DNA of 64,000 nt from an uncultured Enterobacteriaceae bacterium. Lineage in GTDB: Bacteria > Pseudomonadota > Gammaproteobacteria > Eutrophobiales > Eutrophobiaceae. A program made the translations under genes and the position numbers. Each line of letters begins with the position of its first letter. The stretch's first letter is position 1. Shown here one piece after another: positions 9,818 to 27,466 of this stretch. The stretch spans positions 80,241 through 144,240 of the forward strand of contig CAYZJI010000006.1 in the NCBI GenBank assembly GCA_964479045.1, in the 5' to 3' direction. The notes beneath the pieces were generated by a model. That model had not been told where the DNA came from. It searched no databases and saw only the letters and a list, made by a program, of their open reading frames with translations.

Positions 9818-12685
9818 ATGGATAAAGAGAATTCTTCCTGTCTTTACAGCGGAAATGCATGGTTTATTGAAGACCTGTATGAAACCTTCCTGACTCGCCC
9901 CGGCGATCTGAGCCCGGAATGGCGGCACTATTTCGAGAACGTGCAAAAAAGTGAACCGGCGGCACGCGATGTTCCCCACTCACCTATCCAGCAGGCTTTT
10001 CTGACTGCCGCAAAACAGGGCAATGGCAAACAACGGCCCCAAACCAGTGCAGTTGCCGCGCCGGCAAGCGTTGATCATCAGAAACAGGTCGCGGTATTGC
10101 AGTTAATCAATGCCTACCGTTTCCGCGGCCACCGTCAGGCCGATCTCGATCCGCTCAAACAATATGAACGTCCGGTGATTCCTGAACTCGATCCGGCCTA
10201 TCACGGCCTGACCGAGGCGGACATGGACAAACCATTCAATACCGGTTCTTTGCAGTTCACAGATGCGGAAATTCCCCTGCGTGAAATTCTGAACATCGTG
10301 CAAGCCACGTATTGCCGCAGCATCGGTGCGGAGTATATGCATATTAATGAGACCGAACAGAAACGCTGGATCCAGCAGCGTCTGGAAACCTGTCTGGCCC
10401 GCCCTGACTTCGACAAGCTCAAAAAAGTACGCATCCTGGAACGGCTGATCGCAGCAAACGGACTGGAAGAATATCTGCACACCAAGTACGTTGGCCAGAA
10501 ACGTTTCTCGCTGGAAGGTGGTGAGCCCTTAATTCCGCTACTGGATGAACTGATTCAGGACGGTGGCCGCCAGCAAATCAAGGAAGTCGTGATTGGCATG
10601 GCGCATCGTGGCCGTATCAATGTACTGGTCAATGTGATTGGAAAATTGCCCAGCGATCTGTTCAGTGAATTTGAAGGCAAGGGCAAGGCCAATGAAAACA
10701 GCTCCGGTGATGTGAAATATCACCTCGGGTATTCCTCAGATATAGAAACGCCGGGCGGACCGATTCATCTCACACTTGCTTTTAATCCATCCCATCTGGA
10801 AATTATTGACCCGGTGGTGGAAGGATCAGTACGCGCGCGACAGGAACGGCGCCTGGACACCAAACGCGATCAGGTATTGCCGATATTAATACACGGTGAT
10901 GCTGCGTTTGCCGGTCAGGGCGTGGTAATGGAAACCTTCAATTTCTCCCAGACGCGCGGTTACACCACGGGTGGGACGGTACACATTATAATTAATAACC
11001 AGATTGGGTTTACGACGAGTGATCCGCTGGATTCTCGCTCAACACTGTATTGCACGGATGTGGCGAAGACCGTACAGGCGCCGATTTTCCATGTGAATGC
11101 TGATGATCCGGAAGCGGTGGTGTTCATTGCCAGGCTTGCACTGGATTTCCGCATGCAATTCCACAAGGATGTGGTGATTGATCTGGTGTGCTACCGCAAG
11201 CATGGACACAGCGAAGCTGATGAACCGGCGGCGACACAACCGATCATGTACAAACAGATCCGCAAACATCCGGGTGCACGCAAACTCTACACCGATAAAC
11301 TGGTGAATGAAGGCATCATCACCGCCGACGGTGCCGGTAAACTACACGACAATTATATCCAGTCGCTGGAATCGAATCGTGCAGTGGCCGGACCACAGGC
11401 TACAAACGTCAGCCGTGACTTCCTGATCGATTTTACGCCGTACAAAGGCAAGCACTGGGACATGGTGCTGAACACCAATATTAATGAAGCAACGCTCAAG
11501 CGCCTTGCAGAGCGGATAACCACGATCCCTGACGGCTTCAAGCTGCATCCGACCGTACAACGCATCATGGACAGCCGCATCAAGATGGCTGCAGGTGAAT
11601 TACCGATGGACTGGGGCTTTGCTGAAACCATGGCCTATGCGTCATTGCTGGATATCGGCCATCCGGTGCGTGTTTCAGGACAAGATTGCGGCCGTGGCAC
11701 GTTCTTCCATCGCCATGCGGTGCTGCATGACAGTGAAACCGGCGCCACTCATGTACCGCTGCGTCATATCAATGACGCACAGGCGAATTTCCTGGTGATC
11801 AATTCCACACTGTCGGAAGAAGCGGTACTGGCTTATGAATATGGTTACAGCAGTGCCGAACCGAATGCGCTGGTGATCTGGGAAGCGCAGTTTGGTGATT
11901 TCGCCAACGGCGCGCAGGTGGTATTTGATCAATTTATCAGTTCCTGTGAAGCCAAGTGGGGACGCTTTTGTGGTCTCGTGGTATTTCTGCCGCATGGGTA
12001 TGACGGCCAGGGGCCGGAACATTCCTCCGCGCGGCTGGAACGTTATCTGCAACTGTGTGCGGAAGAAAATATGCAGGTGTGTGTGCCGAGTACAGCCGGA
12101 CAGATGTATCACATGCTGCGCCGGCAGATCATGCGGCCGTATCGCAAGCCATTGATCGTGATGAGTCCCAAGAGCCTCCTGCGACACAAGCTTTCTACAA
12201 CTCCAATCGAAGACATCCTCACCGGCCGCTTTCAGACTGTGATCGATGAAGTGGATACGATGGACAAGAAAGCCATCACGCGCCTGCTCTTCTGCTGCGG
12301 CAAGGTGTATTACGACCTGCTCGAAGCCCGGCGCGCAAACAATATCCAGAATATTGCAATCGCCCGCATTGAACAGTTGTTCCCCTTCCCCAAGGAAGCG
12401 GTACAGCGGGTGCTGGCACAGTATGAAAATCTCAAGGAAGTGGTATGGGTGCAGGAAGAACCGAAGAACCAGGGCAGCTGGTACTACATGCAATCCCGCG
12501 GCACCATGATCGGCAGCCTGAGTGATCACCACACCTTTGGGTATGCCGGACGTTTCTATTCCGCATCACCGGCCGTGGGATACATGTCCAAGCATCTGGA
12601 GCAACAGCGGCAACTGGTGGCGGACGCCTTGCAGATCGACAAGCTGGAAGTGACGACGCATAAAAAAACAGTACAGCATGTGTGA
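9818..12685 (+). CDS. sucA: 2-oxoglutarate dehydrogenase E1 component
   Basis: 955 aa. The N-terminus (SGNAWFIEDLYETFL) and TPP-binding regions match SucA. It lies upstream of sucB. Confidence 0.9.
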   Translation: MDKENSSCLYSGNAWFIEDLYETFLTRPGDLSPEWRHYFENVQKSEPAARDVPHSPIQQAFLTAAKQGNGKQRPQTSAVAAPASVDHQKQVAVLQLINAYRFRGHRQADLDPLKQYERPVIPELDPAYHGLTEADMDKPFNTGSLQFTDAEIPLREILNIVQATYCRSIGAEYMHINETEQKRWIQQRLETCLARPDFDKLKKVRILERLIAANGLEEYLHTKYVGQKRFSLEGGEPLIPLLDELIQDGGRQQIKEVVIGMAHRGRINVLVNVIGKLPSDLFSEFEGKGKANENSSGDVKYHLGYSSDIETPGGPIHLTLAFNPSHLEIIDPVVEGSVRARQERRLDTKRDQVLPILIHGDAAFAGQGVVMETFNFSQTRGYTTGGTVHIIINNQIGFTTSDPLDSRSTLYCTDVAKTVQAPIFHVNADDPEAVVFIARLALDFRMQFHKDVVIDLVCYRKHGHSEADEPAATQPIMYKQIRKHPGARKLYTDKLVNEGIITADGAGKLHDNYIQSLESNRAVAGPQATNVSRDFLIDFTPYKGKHWDMVLNTNINEATLKRLAERITTIPDGFKLHPTVQRIMDSRIKMAAGELPMDWGFAETMAYASLLDIGHPVRVSGQDCGRGTFFHRHAVLHDSETGATHVPLRHINDAQANFLVINSTLSEEAVLAYEYGYSSAEPNALVIWEAQFGDFANGAQVVFDQFISSCEAKWGRFCGLVVFLPHGYDGQGPEHSSARLERYLQLCAEENMQVCVPSTAGQMYHMLRRQIMRPYRKPLIVMSPKSLLRHKLSTTPIEDILTGRFQTVIDEVDTMDKKAITRLLFCCGKVYYDLLEARRANNIQNIAIARIEQLFPFPKEAVQRVLAQYENLKEVVWVQEEPKNQGSWYYMQSRGTMIGSLSDHHTFGYAGRFYSASPAVGYMSKHLEQQRQLVADALQIDKLEVTTHKKTVQHV

Positions 12686-12736
12686 TATCAATCGATTCAG
12701 AAATCTTTAATACCGTTTGAATTTAAGGAGATTATC

Positions 12737-14083
12737 GTGACCGTTGAAGTAAAAGTCCCGGTACTGGCGGAATCCGTCGCCGAAGCCACATTGATGAAGT
12801 GGCACAAAAAAGTGGGTGATAAAGTAACTCGGGGTGACAGCCTTATTGATATTGAAACCGACAAGGTCACACTCGAAGTTGCCGCACCGGATGCCGGCGT
12901 GATTGCAGAAATCCTGAAACTGGATGGTGAAGAGGTTAAAAGCAACGAAGTCATAGCCCGCATTGAAACGGGTGACGTATCGGTTGCAGCTCCTGCACCT
13001 GCCGCGGTTAAACCAGCTCCCGCGAGCAAACCGGAACAGCAAACATTAATTGATCCGCCGGCACCGGCATCTGCATCCAAAGCCGATCCCAAACTCAGCC
13101 CGGCCGTGCGCAATCTTTTGCACGAACACAATGTTGAATCCAAAGATGTAAAAACCGCACCCGGCAGCGATCGGGTCACCAAGGAAGATGTACTCAAACA
13201 TGTTGGTCAGACCACGGCCTCTGCTCCTGCTCCTGCTCCGGCGAGACCATCCCCTGCTCCGGCTCCAACACCAGCACCCAAACTTGTGGCTGAAAATAAA
13301 CCCGAACCCAAACCTGAGCCTGTGAAAGCAGCACCTGCGCCTGCTGCTCCAGTTTCAGCACCGGCGCCCGCAGTGTCCGGTGATCGTCCTGAACAACGTG
13401 TGGCCATGACCCGTTTGCGCAAGCGTGCGGCGGAACGCCTGCTGAGTGCGCAACATGAAAACGCCATCCTCACCACGTTCAATGAGATCAACATGCAACC
13501 CGTGATGGATCTGCGTGCCCGTTACAAGGATGAATTTGAAAAGGCACATGGCGTGAAACTCGGTTTCATGTCGTTCTTCACCAAGGCGGCCGTGGAAGCA
13601 CTGAAAAAATTCCCTGTCATCAATGCGTCAGTCGATGGACAGGACATTATCTATCACGGTTACTTTGATATCGGCATTGCGGTAAGCGCTCCGCGCGGTC
13701 TCGTGGTGCCAATCCTGCGCGATGCCGATACGATGTCATTTGCCGGCATTGAAACGAAAATACGCGAACTCGGTGAAAAAGCGCGTGATTCAAAACTCAC
13801 CATTGAAGAACTGACCGGCGGCACGTTCACGATTACCAATGGCGGTGTGTTCGGCTCATTACTCTCGACACCGATCATCAACCCGCCACAGAGCGCGATC
13901 CTCGGTATGCACAAAACACAGGACCGTCCCATTGCGTTGAATGGTGAGGTCGTGATCCGGCCGATGATGTATGTGGCGCTCTCTTATGATCACCGCATCA
14001 TTGATGGCCGCGAAGCCGTGCAGTTCCTGGTCGCGATTAAAGAACAGATTGAAGATCCCACCCGTCTGCTGTTACAGGTGTGA
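12737..14083 (+). CDS. sucB: Dihydrolipoyllysine-residue succinyltransferase (2-oxoglutarate dehydrogenase E2)
   Basis: GTG start after an AAGGAG RBS. It has a lipoyl domain (IETDKV), an Ala/Pro-rich linker, and a catalytic DHRIIDG motif. Confidence 0.9.
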
Positions 14084-15677
<1,594 letters not shown>

Positions 15678-17551: not shown

Positions 17552-18733
17552 ATGTCTGACAATGTCGTAATTGTGGCTGCCGGCCGCACTGCCATAGGCA
17601 GTTTCGGGGGCGCACTCTCTGAAATACCCGCCGCCCAGCTGGGGGCAAAAGTCATTTCCGGTTTGTTGGCCAAAACCGGCATCAAACCGGAACAGGTCGA
17701 TGAAGTCATTCTGGGTCAGGTGTTGACCGCCGGTGTTGGTATGAACCCGGCCCGTCAGGCCGCCATCTATGCCGGTCTGCCGGAAAACATTCCGAGCATG
17801 ACGATCAACAAGGTCTGTGGTTCGGGTCTGAAAGCTGTGGCCCTGGCTGCACAATCCATCCGTGCCGGTGATGCGGAAATTGTCATCGCTGGTGGCCAGG
17901 AAAACATGAGCCTGTCACCGCATATCCTGCCCAAATCCCGCAACGGCAACAAAATGGGTGACTGGGCCATGAAAGACCACATGATCAATGAAGGTCTCAC
18001 CGATGTCTTCAACAATTATCACATGGGCGTCACTGCGGAAAATATTGTGAAGAAATACGGCTTCACCCGTGAAGCCCAGGACGAATTTGCCGCTGCCTCA
18101 CAGCAAAAAACGGAAGCCGCCCAGAAAGCCAACAAGTTCAATGATGAAATCATTCCGGTGGAAATCCCGCAGCGTAAAGGTGATCCAGTCATCTTTGCCA
18201 AGGATGAATTTCCACGTGCCGGAACCACCGCTGAATCACTTGGCAAACTCAAACCGGCATTTGATAAAGCCGGGTCGGTTACTGCAGGCAATGCCTCCGG
18301 CATCAATGACGGCGCTGCTGCTGTAATTGTGATGAGCGAAAAGAAAGCGAAGGAACTCGGTCTGAAACCGCTGGCGACCATCAAGGCCTATGCCAGCGCC
18401 GGCGTGGATCCGCAAATCATGGGCACGGGCCCGATTCCGGCCACCCAGCGTTGTTTGAAGAAGGCAGGATGGACAGTGAAGGATCTGGACCTGATTGAAT
18501 CCAATGAAGCCTTTGCGGCACAAGCCATGTCCGTGAATAAAGACCTTGGCTGGGACACCAGCAAGGTGAATGTAAACGGTGGTGCCATTGCAATCGGTCA
18601 TCCGATCGGTGCTTCCGGCTGCCGCGTGCTGGTCACATTGCTGCATGAAATGAATCGCCGTGATGCGAAAAAAGGCCTGGCCACATTATGCATCGGCGGC
18701 GGTCAGGGTGTGGCCCTGGCGGTGGAGAGGTAA
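17552..18733 (+). CDS. phaA: Acetyl-CoA acetyltransferase (beta-ketothiolase)
   Basis: Thiolase signatures ([11 protein letters not shown]; GGGQGVAL ending) are present. It is followed directly by phaB and phaR. Confidence 0.85.
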
Positions 18734-18738
18734 GCGCC

Positions 18739-19485
18739 ATGGCAAATCTGAAGGGTAAAGTAGCACTCGTCACCGGTGGTACCGGTGGAATAGGAGCAGC
18801 CATTTGTCTGCGGCTTGCCGATTCCGGCGCCAAGGTTGCCACGAATTATCGTGACGAAGCCAAGGCCCGCAAATGGCAGGAAGAAGTGAAAGCCAAGGGT
18901 TATGACATCGCCATCTATCAGGCCGATGTATCTGATCTGAACGCCTGCGTGGAACTCGCTAAAAAGATAACTGCTGATCTCGGTCCGGTCGACATTCTGG
19001 TCAATAACGCCGGCATTACCAAGGACGTCACCTTCCGTAAAATGACCCGCGAACAGTGGGACGCCGTGATGAAGATCAATCTTGACAGCCTCTACAACGT
19101 CACCAAGCAGGTGGTCGATGGCATGATGGAAAAAGGCTGGGGACGTGTGATCAATATCTCGTCCATCAATGGCCAGAAAGGCCAGATTGGGCAGACCAAC
19201 TACACGGCCTCCAAGGCCGGCATGCATGGCTTTACCATGTCGCTGGCACAGGAAGTGGCGCGTAAAGGTGTTACAGTGAATACTGTGTCGCCGGGTTATA
19301 TTGCCACAGATATGGTGATGGCCGTGGCGGAAGACATCCGTAACAAAATCATTGCCGGTATTCCGGTTGGCCGTTTGGGTACGTCTGAAGAAGTGGCCGC
19401 CATGGTGGATTTTCTGGTTTCGGATGAAGCCGGATTCTGCACCGGCGCCGATTTCTCCATGAACGGCGGGCAGCACATGATGTAA
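18739..19485 (+). CDS. phaB: Acetoacetyl-CoA reductase (SDR)
   Basis: From the internal ATG at 18739 the protein begins MANLKGKVALVTGGTGGIGAAI. It carries NAG..., the YxxxK catalytic pair (YTASKAG) and an NGGQHMM ending typical of PhaB. Confidence 0.85.
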   Translation: MANLKGKVALVTGGTGGIGAAICLRLADSGAKVATNYRDEAKARKWQEEVKAKGYDIAIYQADVSDLNACVELAKKITADLGPVDILVNNAGITKDVTFRKMTREQWDAVMKINLDSLYNVTKQVVDGMMEKGWGRVINISSINGQKGQIGQTNYTASKAGMHGFTMSLAQEVARKGVTVNTVSPGYIATDMVMAVAEDIRNKIIAGIPVGRLGTSEEVAAMVDFLVSDEAGFCTGADFSMNGGQHMM

Positions 19486-19570
19486 TTATGTCGACCTGCG
19501 CCGTTGCTATACGATGGGCAACGGTGCAGGATCGGTTACAGACACAAATACTTGGGGGAACTGATTAATC

Positions 19571-20020
19571 ATGAGTGCGCGAATTATCAAAAAATATCCG
19601 AACCGGCGCCTGTACGACACTGAAGACAGCAAATACATTACGCTCGATGATGTGAAACGTCTGGTGTTGGGCGGCGTTGAATTTGTGGTGAAAGATGTCA
19701 AGACCGATGAAGACCTGACCCGTAACATTCTGCTGCAGATCATCGCCGAACAGGAACATGACGGCGAGCCCTTCTTCTCCACCGAACTGCTGACCCAGAT
19801 CATCCGTTCCTACGGTGATTCCATCCAGAGCATGGCGGGAGATTACATTGAAAAAAGCATGCAGCTATTCCTGAACCAGCAGAAGGAGTTCCAGAAAGCC
19901 ATCTCTGCCAATCCCCTGACGGCCATCTCTGATATGGCAGAGCAAAATATGAAAATGTGGCAACAGATGCAGGACAATTTCTTCAAGGCAGCAGGCCTGA
20001 GCAGCAAGGACAACAAGTAA
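19571..20020 (+). CDS. phaR: Polyhydroxyalkanoate synthesis repressor PhaR
   Basis: The N-terminal IKKYPNRRLYDTEDSKYITLDDVKRLV is the PhaR (PHB_acc_N) signature. Confidence 0.85.
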   Translation: MSARIIKKYPNRRLYDTEDSKYITLDDVKRLVLGGVEFVVKDVKTDEDLTRNILLQIIAEQEHDGEPFFSTELLTQIIRSYGDSIQSMAGDYIEKSMQLFLNQQKEFQKAISANPLTAISDMAEQNMKMWQQMQDNFFKAAGLSSKDNK

Positions 20021-20080
20021 ACAAAACCGGACTTCTGTTTGAAATAACAAAAACAACAAGACAAGCACGAGGGTTGACGA

Positions 20081-21115
20081 ATGTTTAAAGCAGGATCGGT
20101 ATACGCCTACCAGGACATGTGGACAGAATTCAGCAAGTTGATGCATAAAACCCAGAAGTCGATGTTCAATCCATGGAGCAATCCGTTTGAACTTACCTTT
20201 GATACGCTGAGTGGTTTGTCCGAATTAACGGGCAATGCCCTCTCCCGGCTGGCCCAGCAGCAACAGGACACCTTGAGTTTTTATCTGGATCCGCTGGCAC
20301 TGAATTCCATCGGCACCATTCAAAAATCCGGCCCGGTAAAAACAACTGCACATAACAAACGCATTGAAAGCGGCCGCGTGGCCCTGGTCACGGGTGGCAT
20401 CGGCGGTATCGGTACGGAAATCTGCAAACAGCTCTATGCCGCTGGCCATAAAGTTATTGCCACCTATATTGCTCCGGAGCAGGAACGCGCCATTGCCTGG
20501 GAAGTGGAACATGAAGCTGCCGGATATGACATCGACATCATCCTCTGTGATGTAACGGATTTCGATTCCTGCAAGCACATGAGCAAGGAACTTGAAAAGC
20601 GTTATGGTCACATTGACATTCTGGTGAACTGCGCAGGCATCACCCGTGACGCCACACTGCGTAAAATGGAAGCCGATAAATGGCATGCTGTTCTTGATAC
20701 CAATCTCGACAGTGTCTTCAACATCACCCGTAATTTCATCAACGGCATGGTGGACCGTGGTTACGGCCGTATTATTAATATCTCCTCCGTGAACGGTCAG
20801 AAAGGCCAGTTCGGCCAGACCAACTATGCCACGGCCAAGGCCGGCATGATTGGTTTCAGCAAAGCATTGGCACTGGAAGTGGCGGATTCAGGTGTGACTG
20901 TGAATTCGGTGTGTCCGGGCTATGTCGGCACCAGCATGATGGACGCCATCCCGGAAGATATTCTTAAAGGCATTATTGCCAAGATACCGGCCGGCCGTCT
21001 CGCCAAACCGGCAGAAATCGCTGCAGCAGTGGTTTATCTGGCCGGCGAAGATGCGGCCTATATCACCGGCTCAGAAATTTCCATCAACGGTGGATTGTTC
21101 ACTGGCATTTCCTGA
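20081..21115 (+). CDS. Acetoacetyl-CoA reductase paralog (SDR) with ~95-aa phasin-like N-terminal extension
   Basis: Residues about 99-344 form a PhaB-like SDR (RVALVTGGIGGIGTEI ... YATAKAG ... NGGLF). Residues 1-95 form a helical region whose pattern (ELTGNALSRLAQQQQDTLSFY) resembles the N-terminal region of the two phasins encoded nearby. Confidence 0.65.
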   Translation: MFKAGSVYAYQDMWTEFSKLMHKTQKSMFNPWSNPFELTFDTLSGLSELTGNALSRLAQQQQDTLSFYLDPLALNSIGTIQKSGPVKTTAHNKRIESGRVALVTGGIGGIGTEICKQLYAAGHKVIATYIAPEQERAIAWEVEHEAAGYDIDIILCDVTDFDSCKHMSKELEKRYGHIDILVNCAGITRDATLRKMEADKWHAVLDTNLDSVFNITRNFINGMVDRGYGRIINISSVNGQKGQFGQTNYATAKAGMIGFSKALALEVADSGVTVNSVCPGYVGTSMMDAIPEDILKGIIAKIPAGRLAKPAEIAAAVVYLAGEDAAYITGSEISINGGLFTGIS

Positions 21116-21245
21116 ATACACCGAATAAATAAATATGGGCAGGAGCCATTTTGCCTATGCCCGTTATTTACACAAGTATTTGATATTTAATAGTATTTAT
21201 TAAATATCGTTTTTGCATTTCCAGTTTCCACCATTAGATAAAGTC

Positions 21246-21275
21246 CTTGACATCGGCCTATGAGTTTCCTATGCT
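21246..21275 (+). promoter_or_regulatory. Candidate sigma70 promoter of the phasin gene (TTGACA-17-TATGCT) overlapping TGC-rich palindromes
   Basis: cTTGACA at 21247-21252, a 17-nt spacer, then TATGCT at 21270-21275. It is followed by ctgcaatgca...gtgcgacgcac...tgcag inverted repeats, a possible PhaR operator. Confidence 0.4.
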
Positions 21276-21342: not shown

Positions 21343-21720
21343 ATGAACACCATGTACGAACAGATGAACAAATATGGCTTGAATGCCTATGAAACCCTGA
21401 AGCAGTTATATGCCATCAACACCAGCCTGGCTGAACAACTGATTGAACAGCAGTTTGCACTGGGCACTCTGGCGATTGAATACAGCACCAAACAGATGAA
21501 GCTTGCCAGCACCGCCAAAGGTTACAAGGAACTGTTGTCCGCCCAGACCGAAATTGCCGGGGAAATGAGCAGCAAGGTACAAGGCATCGCCCGCAACACG
21601 CTGGACATTATGAGCGAAACCAAGGACGAGATTGGCGCATGGTTTGAAAAGTCCATGAAAGATGCCGAGAAAGGTTTGAAAGAAGCCGCCAAGGTTGTGC
21701 CGGTAGCCAAAGCCGCCTGA
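21343..21720 (+). CDS. phaP: Phasin (PHA granule-associated protein, phasin_2 family)
   Basis: From the internal ATG at 21343 (preceded by a GGAGAG RBS) the product is a 125-aa Ala/Glu/Lys-rich helical protein with a phasin-family pattern. It lies in the pha cluster. Confidence 0.7.
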   Translation: MNTMYEQMNKYGLNAYETLKQLYAINTSLAEQLIEQQFALGTLAIEYSTKQMKLASTAKGYKELLSAQTEIAGEMSSKVQGIARNTLDIMSETKDEIGAWFEKSMKDAEKGLKEAAKVVPVAKAA

Positions 21721-21905: not shown

Positions 21906-22970
21906 TCAGGTACGTTTATCCAGCCACTGGCCGACTGAAGGTGGAATCATTTTCTGCGCCTTGCCGCTGACATAAATACCGATATGCCCGCCGGGAAATT
22001 CAAGCTCGGTATAATCCTTGCTACTCACACATCCTTGCAAGGCTTTGGAAGAATCCGGTGGTACCAGATGGTCCGCTGCAGCAAAGATGTTCAGTACCGG
22101 AATGGTAATCTTCTCCAGATCCACGGTCTGGTTACCTATTTTAACCGTGCCTTTGACCAGTCCGTTTTCCTGATAAAACTGTTTGGTAAACTGGCGGAAC
22201 GCTTCGCCGGCCTGATCCGGGCTGTCAAAAATCCACTTTTCCATGCGCATGAAATTACGCGCCTGCTCCTTGTCATCCAGCAGATTGACCAGATCGATAT
22301 ATTTCTGCCCGACCAGCCGGAAAGGCTTCAATGAAAGATAGGTCATGTTGAGCAATTCACCCGGAACATTCCCCATCGTATCGACCAGCAGATCAACATC
22401 AATATGCCGTACCATTCTGCTCAGCAGATCGTCTTTGGTGTGGAAATCCACCGGGGTAACCGTGGTGATCAGGTTTTTGATTTTGTCCTGATGCAATGCT
22501 GTGTAACAGAGACTGAAAGCGCCGCCCTGACAGATGCCGAGCAGGTTGATTTTCTTGATCTTGTGTTCGCGGCAAATCACATCCACACAACGATCGATGT
22601 AACCATTGATGTAGTCATCGAGCGTAAGAAATTTATCAGCACTGTCCGGATAGCCCCAGTCAATCAGGTAAACATCCAGCCCCGCATCCAGCAGCCCCTG
22701 CACCATGGAACGGCCATCCTGCAAATCCGCCATATACGGCCGGTTGACCAGCGCATAGACAATGAGAAGAGGTACCGGATTGCGTTTTTTCACCCGCGGC
22801 TCAAAATGGTACAACACCAGCTTGTCTTCCTGATACACAGGTGCCTTCTTTGAGATACCGACTTCGATATCGCCAATTTCAGTGAGTGTATTGATGCCCT
22901 GCGCCAGTTTCACGTTGAACTGGTTGACTTCGTGGACTATCTCATCGGGCCTGATTTGGAAAGGTATCAC
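21906..22970 (-). CDS. phaC: Poly(3-hydroxyalkanoate) synthase, class III, catalytic subunit PhaC
   Basis: 354 aa, about the size of class-III PhaC. A lipase-box-like GICQGG and a conserved C-terminal region are present. The phaE stop lies 19 nt upstream. Confidence 0.9.
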   Translation of the reverse strand: MIPFQIRPDEIVHEVNQFNVKLAQGINTLTEIGDIEVGISKKAPVYQEDKLVLYHFEPRVKKRNPVPLLIVYALVNRPYMADLQDGRSMVQGLLDAGLDVYLIDWGYPDSADKFLTLDDYINGYIDRCVDVICREHKIKKINLLGICQGGAFSLCYTALHQDKIKNLITTVTPVDFHTKDDLLSRMVRHIDVDLLVDTMGNVPGELLNMTYLSLKPFRLVGQKYIDLVNLLDDKEQARNFMRMEKWIFDSPDQAGEAFRQFTKQFYQENGLVKGTVKIGNQTVDLEKITIPVLNIFAAADHLVPPDSSKALQGCVSSKDYTELEFPGGHIGIYVSGKAQKMIPPSVGQWLDKRT

Positions 22971-22989: not shown

Positions 22990-24171
22990 TCAAATTTTGA
23001 TGATGATCTTTTCGTCTTTCTTGCCGGGTTTACGCACAGGTTTGCGGGCAACCTCCACGCGTTTGCGGGATTCCTTCACTACCGGTTTTGATACTGGCGC
23101 AATTGTGGGTGCTGTTCTGGGTTTTGTGCCGTTGGTGCCGGAAGGTTTAGGTACACCGGCAGCGACCGTTTTCTGCAAATCCCTGATCTGGTCCTGTAAA
23201 TCTGTAATCCGGCGTGACATTTCCTTTGCATCCCGGCGCATTTCCTGCTGACGTTTTTGCAGGGTATTCATGCCACGGCGGGTGGGCATATTGAGCCCGC
23301 CCAGCAGCTCATCCACCACATTGCGTCCATGATGCTTCACCGCCATCAAGGAGTTGGTCAGGCGACCATAGAGAACGGAAAATTCTTCGGTGGCAGTATA
23401 AGCCGCATAAGCATCTTCATTACAATCCACCCAGAGATCATAAATCTCGCGCAGACTGTTGATCTCTTCGCCCTCTTCCGCCAGTTTGATAATCCGTTTA
23501 CGCATTTCTTCCAACGCATCGACACTGACTTTGGTCATGGCAACGTTGTAATCACGTGAATTTTTCTGATATTCATTCCAGAGACGGATTCCTTCCTGGG
23601 CCTGTTCCTGGCTTTCGCGGGTATAGCCTACACCCGGTATGGAGAGAAACTTGTCGGTCACGCTTTCCAGTGCATCCGGTTTCAGATCAGCAAGGAAATC
23701 ACCGGGCATCAGGGATGCTGAAGAGAAAGTGCGTTGCAGGGTATCCAGTGGTAATTGCTGCCAGGCACCCCACATCCCATGCATGGCCTGTGTTGAGTCT
23801 GCCTGTTGACTCTGAAACAGCCGCTTCATTTCTTCAAATTGCGTATTGAGCGCAGTTTGCCAGTCGCCCGTGGCCTTGTTGTATTCGTTGACGTTATTCA
23901 ACAGCTGGGTGAATTGCTCACTGAGGACGTAGAAAAATCTGCCCTGTTCAAGCATCTTGGTGACAAACTCGGAACTGCCTTCCGGCAAGGCGCCGGAAAC
24001 AGATTTCCACCAGAAATCCATCATGTCAGCCAGAGGATTGTTCTTTGCTGAACCAGTCTTGATCCTCGCCGCCGGCTGGGTAAATGACAGCCACGCTTCC
24101 ATCCATTTGCGCTGGGACTCCATCCAGTCCGTACCCCCCCACTGATTTTTACCGGTATTGCTCATTGCCAT
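22990..24171 (-). CDS. phaE: Poly(3-hydroxyalkanoate) synthase, class III, subunit PhaE, with lysine-rich C-terminal tail
   Basis: The N-terminus W..QRKWMEAW matches the PhaE pattern (A. vinosum-type W..QRKYWDNW). It is longer than typical PhaE because of a Lys/Pro/Arg/Val-rich tail (KPVVKESRKRVEVARKPVRKPGKKDEKIIIKI). Confidence 0.8.
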   Translation of the reverse strand: MAMSNTGKNQWGGTDWMESQRKWMEAWLSFTQPAARIKTGSAKNNPLADMMDFWWKSVSGALPEGSSEFVTKMLEQGRFFYVLSEQFTQLLNNVNEYNKATGDWQTALNTQFEEMKRLFQSQQADSTQAMHGMWGAWQQLPLDTLQRTFSSASLMPGDFLADLKPDALESVTDKFLSIPGVGYTRESQEQAQEGIRLWNEYQKNSRDYNVAMTKVSVDALEEMRKRIIKLAEEGEEINSLREIYDLWVDCNEDAYAAYTATEEFSVLYGRLTNSLMAVKHHGRNVVDELLGGLNMPTRRGMNTLQKRQQEMRRDAKEMSRRITDLQDQIRDLQKTVAAGVPKPSGTNGTKPRTAPTIAPVSKPVVKESRKRVEVARKPVRKPGKKDEKIIIKI

Positions 24172-24336: not shown

Positions 24337-24705
24337 TTATTTTTTGGCAGTGCGTTTGGCCGGGACTTTCGCAGTAGTTTCTGCGGTTTCGAGGCCTTTT
24401 TCCATCCAGGTCACAATTTCATCGCGGGATTCACTCAGGATAGAAGCGGCCTGCTTGGTGAAATCCATCGCCTTGGCACTGTATACACCGGCAAAGTCAG
24501 TTTCAGCGGTCAGGTAATCCTTGTAATTGCTGGTGCTGGTCAGCAGCTTGGTCTGCTCTATGCCGGTTTCGATATTGAATGTGGCAAATTTGAACTGCAG
24601 ATCCATCAGCTTCTGGAAAGCCTTGGCATTGATGGCCCCCAGTTCCTGCAGGGACTCATAAGATGCCCGGCCGGCGGTGGTAAATTGTTCTACATAGTCT
24701 TGCAT
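24337..24705 (-). CDS. Phasin family protein (second copy)
   Basis: 122-aa helical Ala/Glu/Lys/Thr-rich protein whose pattern parallels the first phasin (LQELGAINAKAFQKLMDLQFKF). It is adjacent to phaE. Confidence 0.7.
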   Translation of the reverse strand: MQDYVEQFTTAGRASYESLQELGAINAKAFQKLMDLQFKFATFNIETGIEQTKLLTSTSNYKDYLTAETDFAGVYSAKAMDFTKQAASILSESRDEIVTWMEKGLETAETTAKVPAKRTAKK

Positions 24706-24898: not shown

Positions 24899-27466
24899 TC
24901 AGGCTGTTTTCATGACTTTGCAGAGAATTTGGGCCAGAGGCAGGGGCTTACCGAAATAATAACCCTGGATGGCATGACAACCTTTTTCCCTCATGTAGTT
25001 GAACTGCTCAACCGTTTCCACGCCTTCTGCCAGGACTTTCAGGCCCAGTTGCCGCGCAATGGCGATAATCGCCTCACATATAGCAGCATCGCTCGGATTG
25101 GTATACAAATCACGCACAAAGGATTTGTCAATTTTGATGATATTGATGGGAAACTGCTTGAGATATGCCAGTGAAGAATAGCCGGTGCCAAAATCATCGA
25201 GGGACAGTTTCAGTCCGAGGGCGCTTAACTGATTCAGTATTTCCAGGCTACGGGCCGTTTCCGTCATCATGATCGTTTCGGTAATTTCGATCACCAGTTG
25301 TTCCGGGGTGACACCGGTTTCATCCATGATCAGCTTGATGCGATCCACGATAGTGTTATCCACAAACTGGCGCGCCGAGAGGTTAATTGAAACGCTGCGA
25401 AAATCCGGATTCATCCGGGACATCTCCGCAATATCACGGCAGGCGCGTCGCAATATCCAGTCACCCACCGGCACAATCAACCCGGTATCTTCCAGTAATG
25501 GTACAAACTGATCAGGAGAGACGAGGCCGGTTTCCGAGTCATGCCAGCGGATCAGTGCTTCATAGCCTGATACTTGCAAGGTTTGTACGTCCACTTGCGG
25601 CTGGTAATACAACATAAACTGATCATATTCCACAGCACGCCGCAGCCGGTTTTCGCGATCCAGTCGCTGCCGGGCCTCTGCATTCATGGTCTGGGTATAG
25701 TACTGGTAATTATTGCGGCCCTTGGACTTGGCGTGATACATGGCCGAATCTGCATTCTTGACCAGGGATTCTATATCCTCAGCATCATCCGGAAATATGC
25801 TGACGCCTATACTCGGGCTGATACTGATCTCTTCGCCGCCGATACTGAATGATGTATCCAGCAGACTGATGATTTTTTCTGCGACCTTGCCTGCTACGCT
25901 GATGTCCTGTATTTCGGGCAATATGATTGTGAATTCATCCCCACCCAGGCGACACACGGTATCCGTACTGCGTACACACTGTGCAAATCGTACAGCGACA
26001 TTTTTCAGGAGTTCATCGCCGGCACTGTGCCCGAGTGAATCATTGATTTTCTTGAAGCGGTCCAGATCTATGTAAAGCAACCCCAGCAACTTTTGATGAC
26101 GGCGTGAACGGTCCATGCCCTGTTGCAAACGGTCCATAAACAGGGAACGGTTGGGCAGCCCGGTAAGTGTATCGAAATTGGCCATATGCAGCAGTTCTTC
26201 TTCGGAACGCTTGCGCTGAGTTATGTCTTCAAACAGCCAGATGACACCTTCTGCCCCGGTTTTTTCAGAAATGGATTTTGCTGAAACAGCACACCAGAAG
26301 ATGGTTCCATTCTTGTGCTTCATCTTCCATTCACCCTGATACGTTTCATCATTGGCCAGCAAGTTGACCGCCGCCTCATTGATCGCTTCATGGGTCTGTG
26401 TCGATGGATAAAGTATGTCCTTGTTCCGGCCCTCAATCTCTTCACGATCGTAACCGAATATTTCCTCGAACTTCCGGTTCACAGCAACGATCTTTTTATC
26501 CATGACCTGGGCAATGCCAACCAGCGCATTTTCCAGTATGGCACGCATGCGTTTTTCATTACGTTCCAGTGCGGTGTTGGCATTGATCACTTCATTAAAC
26601 AGGGACTCAAGGCGTTCAGCAGAGCGGTTGAAATCCATGGTCAATTCCGCAAACTCATCATGTACTTCACGGTTTTCATCCAGGCGGCGTGACATATCAC
26701 CCCCGGACAAATCATGCATGGCTATCCGCACGTTGTTCAGCGGTGCATCGATCCGGTAAATCACCAGTGCTGTGCCGGCCACGATAATTGCGATTACCAG
26801 CAGACTCACAATCATGACAATTGCGAGGTTTATAAAACTCAAGTCACGAGAAGCTGAGGTCAGCGTATTAATCTTGTCTGCAGTGAGTGTTGATATTCTT
26901 TTCAGTGTTGCCGTCAACTCGGCATCTCGCGTGCCGATTTCTGCATTCATATCAATCAACTCGTCCTGCGTGCAGGATGCATTCGGCCCTTCAGTGGCCG
27001 ACACTTCCAGGATATTTAGCTTGCATTTTGTCAATGCGAGATCGTGCGCAAGATAATCCCTGAATTTCTCCACCAGGCCCGGTAACATCGTACGCAGATC
27101 CGAAAAGTCCGCATTATGGCGTGTGAGTTGCGCCAGATAACCGGTTATCAGCTCTTCCTGACTACCCTGTTCCAGATATGCGCCCAGATCTTCAATCCGG
27201 TTTGTCTCCATGAGGTCCTGCCGGAGTTTCTGCTTTTCAGCAAGCTGATATTCAAGGTTTCTGAGAATATTGCTGGAGGGAATCAGATTTTCATCAAGCA
27301 ATTCCTGTTTGGATGAAATAACATCATTGGTGACGAGTGCTGTAATGGACAGCAGAATAACTGCAGAGGAACAGATGATCGCCCAGTTCTGCAGCAGTTT
27401 CCTGATGGAGAGATTATTCAGGAGCCGGGAATTTTTGAGATAACCTGGAAGATCAATATTATGCAC
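24899..27466 (-). CDS. Sensor-containing bifunctional diguanylate cyclase/phosphodiesterase (TM sensor - HAMP-like - PAS - GGDEF - EAL)
   Basis: It has two TM helices flanking a periplasmic region, a PAS block, and a GGDEF domain (RLGGDEF). The EAL domain carries YEALIRW and DDFGTGYSSL. Confidence 0.85.
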   Translation of the reverse strand: MHNIDLPGYLKNSRLLNNLSIRKLLQNWAIICSSAVILLSITALVTNDVISSKQELLDENLIPSSNILRNLEYQLAEKQKLRQDLMETNRIEDLGAYLEQGSQEELITGYLAQLTRHNADFSDLRTMLPGLVEKFRDYLAHDLALTKCKLNILEVSATEGPNASCTQDELIDMNAEIGTRDAELTATLKRISTLTADKINTLTSASRDLSFINLAIVMIVSLLVIAIIVAGTALVIYRIDAPLNNVRIAMHDLSGGDMSRRLDENREVHDEFAELTMDFNRSAERLESLFNEVINANTALERNEKRMRAILENALVGIAQVMDKKIVAVNRKFEEIFGYDREEIEGRNKDILYPSTQTHEAINEAAVNLLANDETYQGEWKMKHKNGTIFWCAVSAKSISEKTGAEGVIWLFEDITQRKRSEEELLHMANFDTLTGLPNRSLFMDRLQQGMDRSRRHQKLLGLLYIDLDRFKKINDSLGHSAGDELLKNVAVRFAQCVRSTDTVCRLGGDEFTIILPEIQDISVAGKVAEKIISLLDTSFSIGGEEISISPSIGVSIFPDDAEDIESLVKNADSAMYHAKSKGRNNYQYYTQTMNAEARQRLDRENRLRRAVEYDQFMLYYQPQVDVQTLQVSGYEALIRWHDSETGLVSPDQFVPLLEDTGLIVPVGDWILRRACRDIAEMSRMNPDFRSVSINLSARQFVDNTIVDRIKLIMDETGVTPEQLVIEITETIMMTETARSLEILNQLSALGLKLSLDDFGTGYSSLAYLKQFPINIIKIDKSFVRDLYTNPSDAAICEAIIAIARQLGLKVLAEGVETVEQFNYMREKGCHAIQGYYFGKPLPLAQILCKVMKTA

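Follow-up and report, generated by a model that had tools for sequence, protein, structure and literature searches.

The window, the 64,000-nt stretch of DNA analysed here, contains a PHA gene cluster in which a canonical short phaB is accompanied by a second gene of this type, here called long phaB. Its product carries, ahead of an intact reductase domain, an N-terminal extension. Comparison with homologues showed this extension to be genuine and conserved, and its function is open to experimental test. The extension is predicted to form two amphipathic helices followed by a disordered linker, and its likeness to phasins is weakly supported. Whether the extension tethers the enzyme as a dedicated reductase to the PHA granule is discussed below, together with the alternatives.

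A second PhaB-type gene in the PHA cluster

The features of the cluster are listed in Table 1. A preliminary description of this DNA had placed a second PhaB-like SDR within the PHA cluster, separated by 60 nt from phaR and provided with a long N-terminal extension ahead of the Rossmann motif, and each of these statements was confirmed. Residues 99-340 of long PhaB matched the TIGR01829 acetoacetyl-CoA reductase model with 368.9 bits, above the curated cut-off of 302.1, in addition to the short phaB at 18739-19485. The gap follows from the end of phaR at 20020 and the start of long phaB at 20081, and about 98 residues precede the SDR match, which begins at aa 99. The catalytic region also matched adh_short (E 9e-60), and residues 1-98 gave no match to any Pfam or NCBIfam model at E<=1. 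Long PhaB has both the TGxxxGxG dinucleotide-binding motif and the N-S-Y-K set. The glycine motif reads TGGIGGIG (aa 104-111), and T104, G105, G106, G108 and G111 as well as the catalytic N208, S236 (S235/236 position), Y249 and K253 are invariant in the long PhaBs (104 sequences). The catalytic residues are intact, and long PhaB presumably catalyses the (R)-specific reduction of acetoacetyl-CoA that its family assignment implies. The gene thus encodes a second PhaB-type reductase of the PHA cluster.

Table 1 Features of the long phaB gene, of the surrounding PHA cluster and of phasin genes next to phaB in related loci.
Feature	Position	Strand	Basis
phaA (beta-ketothiolase, 393 aa)	17552..18733	+	ORF; syntenic genes with Thiolase_N/C
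short canonical phaB (248 aa)	18739..19485	+	TIGR01829, 376.8 bits
phaR (149 aa)	19571..20020	+	TIGR01848, 156.7 bits
Shine-Dalgarno-like GAGGG	20069..20073	+	7 nt 5' of ATG, read from sequence
long phaB (acetoacetyl-CoA reductase, 344 aa + stop)	20081..21115	+	ORF; TIGR01829
extension core, aa 1-70, two amphipathic helices	20081..20290	+	AF2/DSSP, alignment A2, hydrophobic moment, dN/dS
variable linker, aa 71-98	20291..20374	+	pLDDT, alignment A2
classical SDR catalytic domain, aa 99-344	20375..21112	+	HMM matches, motif residues
terminator-like hairpin 3' of long phaB	21134..21159	+	consensus match only
promoter-like site 5' of phasin	21247-21275		consensus match only
phasin (Phasin_2)	21343..21720	+	PF09361, E 9e-13
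class III PHA synthase subunit PhaC	21906..22970	-	TIGR01836, 554.6 bits
class III PHA synthase subunit PhaE	22990..24171	-	TIGR01834, 218.1 bits; PF09712, E 5e-76
second phasin (Phasin_2)	24337..24705	-	PF09361, E 9e-15
phasins 5' of phaB in related loci	L005:5618-5986, L029:5582-5965, L039:5630-6013, L040:834-1262		Phasin_2, E 1e-16 to 4e-20

The start codon of long phaB is the ATG at 20081. An in-frame TGA (20075-20077) lies directly 5' of this ATG, and a start further upstream is therefore impossible. Consensus matching found no terminator-like site between phaA, short phaB, phaR and long phaB on the + strand, and the four genes likely form one operon with phaA as the first gene. Across the whole window (1-64000) every Rfam family stayed below its gathering score.

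The gene order was compared in nine distinct loci (the window, L001/L002, L003/L004, L085, L086, L087, L088, L089 and L090/L091), whose long PhaBs are about 51-65% identical to the window protein. The order short phaB, phaR, long phaB is present in 9/9 loci, and phaR is immediately 5' of long phaB in all of them. A phaA gene precedes the short phaB in eight of the nine and is absent in L087; class III phaC/phaE and phasin genes adjoin the long phaB block in six. In the window cluster, and at these frequencies in the loci as a whole, long phaB is genomically associated with phaA and a PHA synthase, and across the nine loci the pha block is usually located downstream of sucAB-lpd.

Some observations on the neighbourhood are added here. 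The sucA-sucB-lpd genes (9818-15677 in the window) lie directly 5' of the pha operon (17552-21115) and are likewise found upstream in L001, L003, L085-L088 and L090, that is in 7/8 related loci, of which L089 begins within phaA. A LysR regulator is located between the two blocks in the window, L085 and L090, joined by a SnoaL-like gene in the window and L085. The second phasin gene of the window is adjoined by the gene of a large PAS-GGDEF-EAL protein (24899-27466, - strand), an arrangement that is kept in L085, and a PAS-GGDEF gene is present near a phasin gene in L003; this neighbourhood suggests a possible link of c-di-GMP signalling to PHA metabolism. In two loci the glycine motif of the co-resident short PhaB is degenerate: in place of VTGGxGGIG it reads VADGSSAIG in L087 (6668-7417) and VVGGAGEQG in L088 (6665-7417), with Y-x-x-x-K kept in both. 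The main functional reductase of these two lineages may thus be the long form. On L086:1-7364, a low-coverage long-read contig, sucA, sucB, lpd, phaA and short phaB are each broken up into several ORFs and long phaB is intact. The fragmentation most likely results from assembly indels and not from biology.

Conservation and translation of the extension

Among the best 120 homologous clusters found with full-length long PhaB (49-68% identity), at least 104 (50-68% identity) carry at least 75 aa ahead of the Rossmann motif, and Met1 is conserved in more than 90% of the long-form homologues. For one close pair (L090 vs L089) a dN/dS of 0.15 was determined for the helical core of the extension vs 0.08 for the SDR domain, the core value being based on the small counts of 8 synonymous and 5 non-synonymous changes. 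The extension frame, kept in at least 104 clusters and with this dN/dS of its core, is therefore not a product of chance, and these data indicate that the extension is translated and conserved. They are in agreement with the upstream start of the preliminary description, as are the common Met1 and the Shine-Dalgarno-like motif, and the survey of homologues suggested there came out in favour of a retained extension.

The one named organism that carries long PhaB is Methylohalomonas lacus (Gammaproteobacteria, Methylohalomonadales); all other carriers are gammaproteobacterial MAGs. When the extension by itself was used as query, a word-indexed search for homologues gave no match, and a full-length query was required. 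No extension was present within 6 kb of the canonical PhaB loci of other Proteobacteria (at least 80 loci, among the matches listed), which thus served as negative controls. In a profile search of 1.84 billion representative proteins no stand-alone extension module was found beyond contig-edge fragments; in every other case it was part of the reductase.

Two cases in the databases were considered as forms with a missing or a separate extension, and both were rejected. P0046 (L089:2225-3253) is annotated by NCBI with 250 aa, and its 'start' is an Ile codon within an intact long frame. P0177 (93 aa, annotated as 'hypothetical protein') and P0178 (238 aa) are not a natural split: the gene is broken within the Rossmann strand and the strand is missing, probably by a frameshift or an assembly error. 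In these entries the extension was cut or split off by automatic annotation, and the long-form family is therefore under-recognised in databases.

Predicted structure of the extension

The preliminary description had predicted the extension to be helical. In agreement with this, AlphaFold2 (AF2/DSSP) predicted helices at aa 7-29 and 35-68 with moderate confidence (pLDDT 54-82), followed by a linker of low confidence (pLDDT below 50 for aa 72-90; disordered stretch 72-98) and a confidently predicted SDR domain. The model of the extension alone had a pTM of 0.25, and a mutual packing of the two helices is therefore not confident. A Foldseek comparison of the isolated extension model with the PDB yielded 0 matches, and a profile search of PDB sequences with the extension produced only chance helical matches (E>=0.68). 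The best PDB matches of the protein, PhaBs of 245-270 aa, span only aa 88-342, and the extension is not covered by any solved PhaB structure.

An alignment of 44 diverse extensions (A2) revealed a conserved core at approximately aa 13-70 with the family motif Q..M...W..P.E.T..SF....E..N.A...L..Q...L..Y, at a sequence identity within the extension of 13-41%. The linker varies in length and sequence and has no conserved columns; it is rich in S, T, K, Q and P across the family. Family-averaged hydrophobicity peaks sharply at 100 degrees in both helices, with moments of 0.28 and 0.36 (p=0.007 for the first and <0.0005 for the second helix vs shuffles). The extension therefore has two conserved amphipathic helices, with a linker that is predicted to be disordered.

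We also noticed that part of the extension core (aa 27-50, 20159-20230; consensus llENWHnpvDlTfnSlsql) resembles, family-wide, a helix of the SDR domain, ENWHAVLDTNLDSVFNV (aa 199-222, 20675-20746). An origin of the extension as an internal duplication of the SDR helix ENWHAVLDTNLDSVF was considered and discarded: the likeness is a match of a short motif with at most 10 bits (HMM) and was judged to be probably coincidental.

Likeness of the extension to phasins

An alignment to the Phasin_2 HMM (PF09361), the check named in the preliminary description, did not reveal a phasin domain. The window extension had no match at E<=1. At E<=10 none was obtained either, be it for 44 members of the family, for its consensus or for the three members most like phasins. 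The gathering score of PF09361 is 24.9 bits and, having no match to the model, the extension is not a Phasin_2 member by the family's own criterion. The phasin model TIGR01841 did not match the extension either.

Comparison of profiles gave a different kind of signal. With hhalign, A2 was aligned to 25 phasins with a probability of 50.8% (P 1.6e-4, score 27.9), aa 23-77 of the extension falling onto aa 1-53 of the phasins; with 37 more diverse phasins the probability was 62.8% (P 7e-5, score 30.9). Reversed alignments scored 13-15 and 40 block-shuffles at most 16.7. However, A2 also reached 27.2 (30.7%), near the phasin score of 30.9, with an unrelated SDR-domain helix, by a match through the short common motif ENWH..D.T..S.F. 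For the A2 profile, hhalign scores of about 30 therefore do not discriminate. Likeness to PhaR (16.6), PhaE (17.3) and PhaC (12.8) was at background level by hhalign, and these proteins were dismissed as relatives.

Searching the 1.84 billion representative proteins with the A2 HMM retrieved only family fragments, two repeat proteins and P0132 (E 6.4e-4). The latter is a metagenomic Phasin_2 protein of 185 aa with three consecutive copies of the phasin N-terminal motif (aa 1-41, 40-81 and 59-135), each of which aligns to the extension core; its significance is the sum over the three repeated stretches, the best single one having an E of ~3.5 library-wide. The two repeat proteins, P0121 and P0131, were rejected as compositional matches. 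Among 10,395 ORF fragments of 89 loci, seven of the ten top non-self matches to the A2 HMM were Phasin_2 ORFs, and PhaR ORFs were present among the weak matches. Three of 37 phasins (P0132 with 36.4, the L086 phasin with 21.1 and the L001 phasin with 19.7 bits) scored above all 3,269 composition-matched decoys, the maximum of which was 18.0 bits. Reversed phasins also scored several bits against the extension profile, and the phasin signal therefore has a compositional component. Conversely, the window extension scored 10.3 bits with a phasin HMM, compared to a reversed-decoy maximum of 7.2, and forward scores were higher than reversed ones in both search directions.

The extension had been described as phasin-like, its residue pattern echoing the N-terminal regions of the two phasins of this locus. 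The phasin likeness is weakly supported: the register of ELTGNALSRLAQQQQDTLSFY vs ELGAINAKAFQKLMDLQFKF was recovered by hhalign (51-63%, P ~1e-4). For the two phasins of the window themselves it was not borne out, as the extension profile gave them no more than ~1-2 bits, inside the decoy range. From these comparisons a true Phasin_2 ancestry of the extension appears about as probable as its opposite, perhaps slightly more so.

Cofactor loop

The cofactor loop of the long form has the pattern T-Y-I-x-x-E-x-E (TYIAPEQE in the window protein) and lacks an Arg. The short PhaB of the window has NYRDEAKAR, which includes Arg, and in five loci (window, L001, L003, L085 and L090/L091) the loop of the co-resident short PhaB contains NYR. 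In C. necator PhaB1, R40 of this loop contacts the 2'-phosphate of NADPH, and the segment N37-R41 holds determinants of cofactor preference (PMC8904767); a related reductase of A. vinosum uses both NADH and NADPH (PMC5116212). Because of the missing Arg, the role of R40 in PhaB1 and the dual cofactor use in A. vinosum, it is a reasonable guess, but no more than that, that the long form differs from the short PhaB in its cofactor preference.

Possible origin from a phaP-phaB pair

Ectothiorhodospira haloalkaliphila (L005) has a full Phasin_2 gene immediately 5' of a canonical phaB and in the same orientation, and this arrangement recurs in Chromatiaceae and gammaproteobacterial MAGs (L029, L039 and L040; Table 1). 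The pha locus of A. vinosum has the same order of phasin and reductase. In neighbour-joining trees, the taxa of which included canonical short PhaB loci (at least 80, among the matches listed), the long-form SDR domains grouped with these phaP-linked PhaBs and apart from the co-resident short PhaBs in 59/60 bootstraps. The mean Kimura distances were 0.68 to the former vs 0.91 to the latter; monophyly of the long form was weakly supported (32/60 bootstraps). The grouping suggests that long phaB may have arisen by a phaP-phaB fusion and that the phasin part was shortened afterwards. Compared with other phasins, those of L005, L029, L039 and L040 do not stand out in likeness to the extension, and no fused intermediate was found among the loci examined.

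Proposed mechanism and alternatives

We propose that the two amphipathic helices constitute a module that is connected to the SDR domain by a flexible linker of ~27 residues and that would bind, in the manner of a phasin, to the surface of the PHA granule or to its phasin/PhaEC coat. The reductase is presumably a tetramer, by analogy with canonical PhaB, and would then have four such arms. Long PhaB would be held at the granule and would produce (R)-3-hydroxybutyryl-CoA beside the class III synthase, and the short PhaB of the cluster would remain soluble. A Phasin_2 phasin is the probable source of the module, which would correspond to its N-terminal half and may have been acquired when adjacent phaP and phaB genes fused. 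Granule tethering by the extension is plausible by analogy: enzymes fused to PhaP by engineering are active on granules, and lists of granule-associated proteins include reductases (PMC5658603). Taken as a whole, this proposal of a granule-tethered dedicated reductase with a phasin-like arm is evenly poised between right and wrong in our estimate. To a more specific version, in which a half-phasin fusion anchors the second reductase beside PhaEC as a metabolon with NADH as possible cofactor, and in which the short PhaB works in the cytosol with NADPH, we assign somewhat less than even chances.

Amphipathic helices are equally able to oligomerise or to dock to a protein partner. The main alternative, which we consider less likely than not, is that the extension is a lineage-specific amphipathic module without relation to phasins that serves in oligomerisation, in regulation or in docking to PhaR, PhaE/PhaC or a phasin; it would not bind the polymer directly, and its resemblance to phasins would be compositional or convergent. 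The lack of any Phasin_2 HMM match, the scores of the reversed phasins and of the SDR-helix control (27.2) and the PhaR ORFs among the weak profile matches all fit such a module, as do the invariant adjacency of phaR in 9/9 loci and an extension model that has no confident tertiary fold. They have to be weighed against the three phasins that exceed all 3,269 decoys, a register that is the same across methods, and reciprocal searches in which forward and reversed sequences behave asymmetrically; the low hhalign scores with PhaR, PhaE and PhaC also argue against this explanation.

We regard it as improbable that the extension is a leader or spacer that is tolerated and has little or no function, such as the decayed remnant of a fused upstream gene, on an ordinary soluble PhaB paralogue that differs only in kinetics or cofactor use. 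The unconstrained linker, the low identity within the extension (13-41%) and the truncated or split database entries speak for such a leader, but the truncated entries stem from annotation or assembly errors and keep the upstream frame intact, the core has a dN/dS of 0.15, and length, helix positions, periodicity, W32, P35 and the S/F pattern are kept in proteins that are only 50% identical overall. Still far less probable is a mis-called start codon, in which case translation would begin close to the Rossmann motif and leave the frame ahead of it untranslated. A GTG codon is present at V100, and the NCBI annotation of the orthologue P0046 with 250 aa would be in line with it; however, a start at V100 would delete part of strand beta-1, no ATG occurs from codon 28 to the SDR domain, and the 'start' of P0046 is the Ile codon mentioned above. 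The Shine-Dalgarno-like motif is located ahead of the ATG at 20081, and the open frame with a common Met1 in at least 104 clusters and the dN/dS of its core likewise speak against an internal start.

If the half-phasin version of the proposal is correct, long PhaB would be the first known case of a pathway enzyme that is brought to carbonosomes by a phasin domain of its own. Whether the monomer-supplying PHB enzymes are organised at the granule surface has long been debated. Reductases occur in granule proteomes, yet we know of no targeting determinant. A conserved amphipathic arm on a dedicated second PhaB is a concrete and readily testable candidate for such a determinant, and the conserved pairing of long PhaB with a short PhaB of different loop suggests a division of labour. 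A short natural tether (~70 aa + linker) at the N-terminus of an enzyme could also aid the immobilisation of enzymes on PHA beads.

Comparison with known systems

The preliminary description knew of no characterisation of this arrangement, and neither our searches of full-text literature nor a review on phasins (PMC5658603) yielded an account of a natural PhaB that is extended in this way. Sources that name long-form proteins call them simply 'acetoacetyl-CoA reductase'. With canonical PhaBs (C. necator PhaB1, 3VZP/4N5L; Burkholderia, 4K6C) long PhaB shares the catalytic domain, the glycine motif, the N-S-Y-K set and a pha operon with phaA, and its identity to the solved PhaBs, read from the alignment, is ~50%. 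Unlike them it has the N-terminal extension of ~98 aa and is, in the loci examined, always a second copy that follows phaR; it also lacks the NADPH-contacting loop Arg of C. necator PhaB1 (PMC8904767).

Phasin_2 phasins and the extension have in common the amphipathic helices, the setting in a pha locus and a weak, register-consistent likeness between aa 23-77 of the extension and the first ~53 phasin residues, which is strongest for phasins of genomes that encode long PhaB (L086, 21 bits; L001, 19.7 bits). The two phasins of the window have no detectable one-to-one similarity to the extension. Phasins are free, abundant coat proteins, whereas the extension is fused to an enzyme and corresponds to only about half of a phasin domain. 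Pseudomonas PhaF consists of an N-terminal phasin domain and a C-terminal histone-like DNA-binding domain. It follows the same design logic of a granule-binding amphipathic module combined with a second functional domain, but belongs to another phasin family (PF05597), has a DNA-binding tail instead of an enzyme and another order of modules; the comparison concerns the design alone. In engineered PhaP-enzyme fusions (e.g. PhaP1-D-hydantoinase; PMC5658603) an N-terminal phasin tethers an active enzyme, as proposed here for long PhaB. These fusions are artificial and combine a full-length phasin with an unrelated cargo, whereas long PhaB is natural and would combine a partial module with an enzyme of the pathway. 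The closest parallel in gene arrangement is the phaP-phaB pair of Chromatiaceae and Ectothiorhodospira, in which phasin and reductase genes follow each other on the same strand with abutting frames, separated by no more than a few tens of nt, and the PhaBs of which are, among the loci listed, most closely related to the catalytic domain of the long form. There, phaP and phaB are two separate genes and the phasin has a full Phasin_2 domain, whereas long PhaB is one fused protein.
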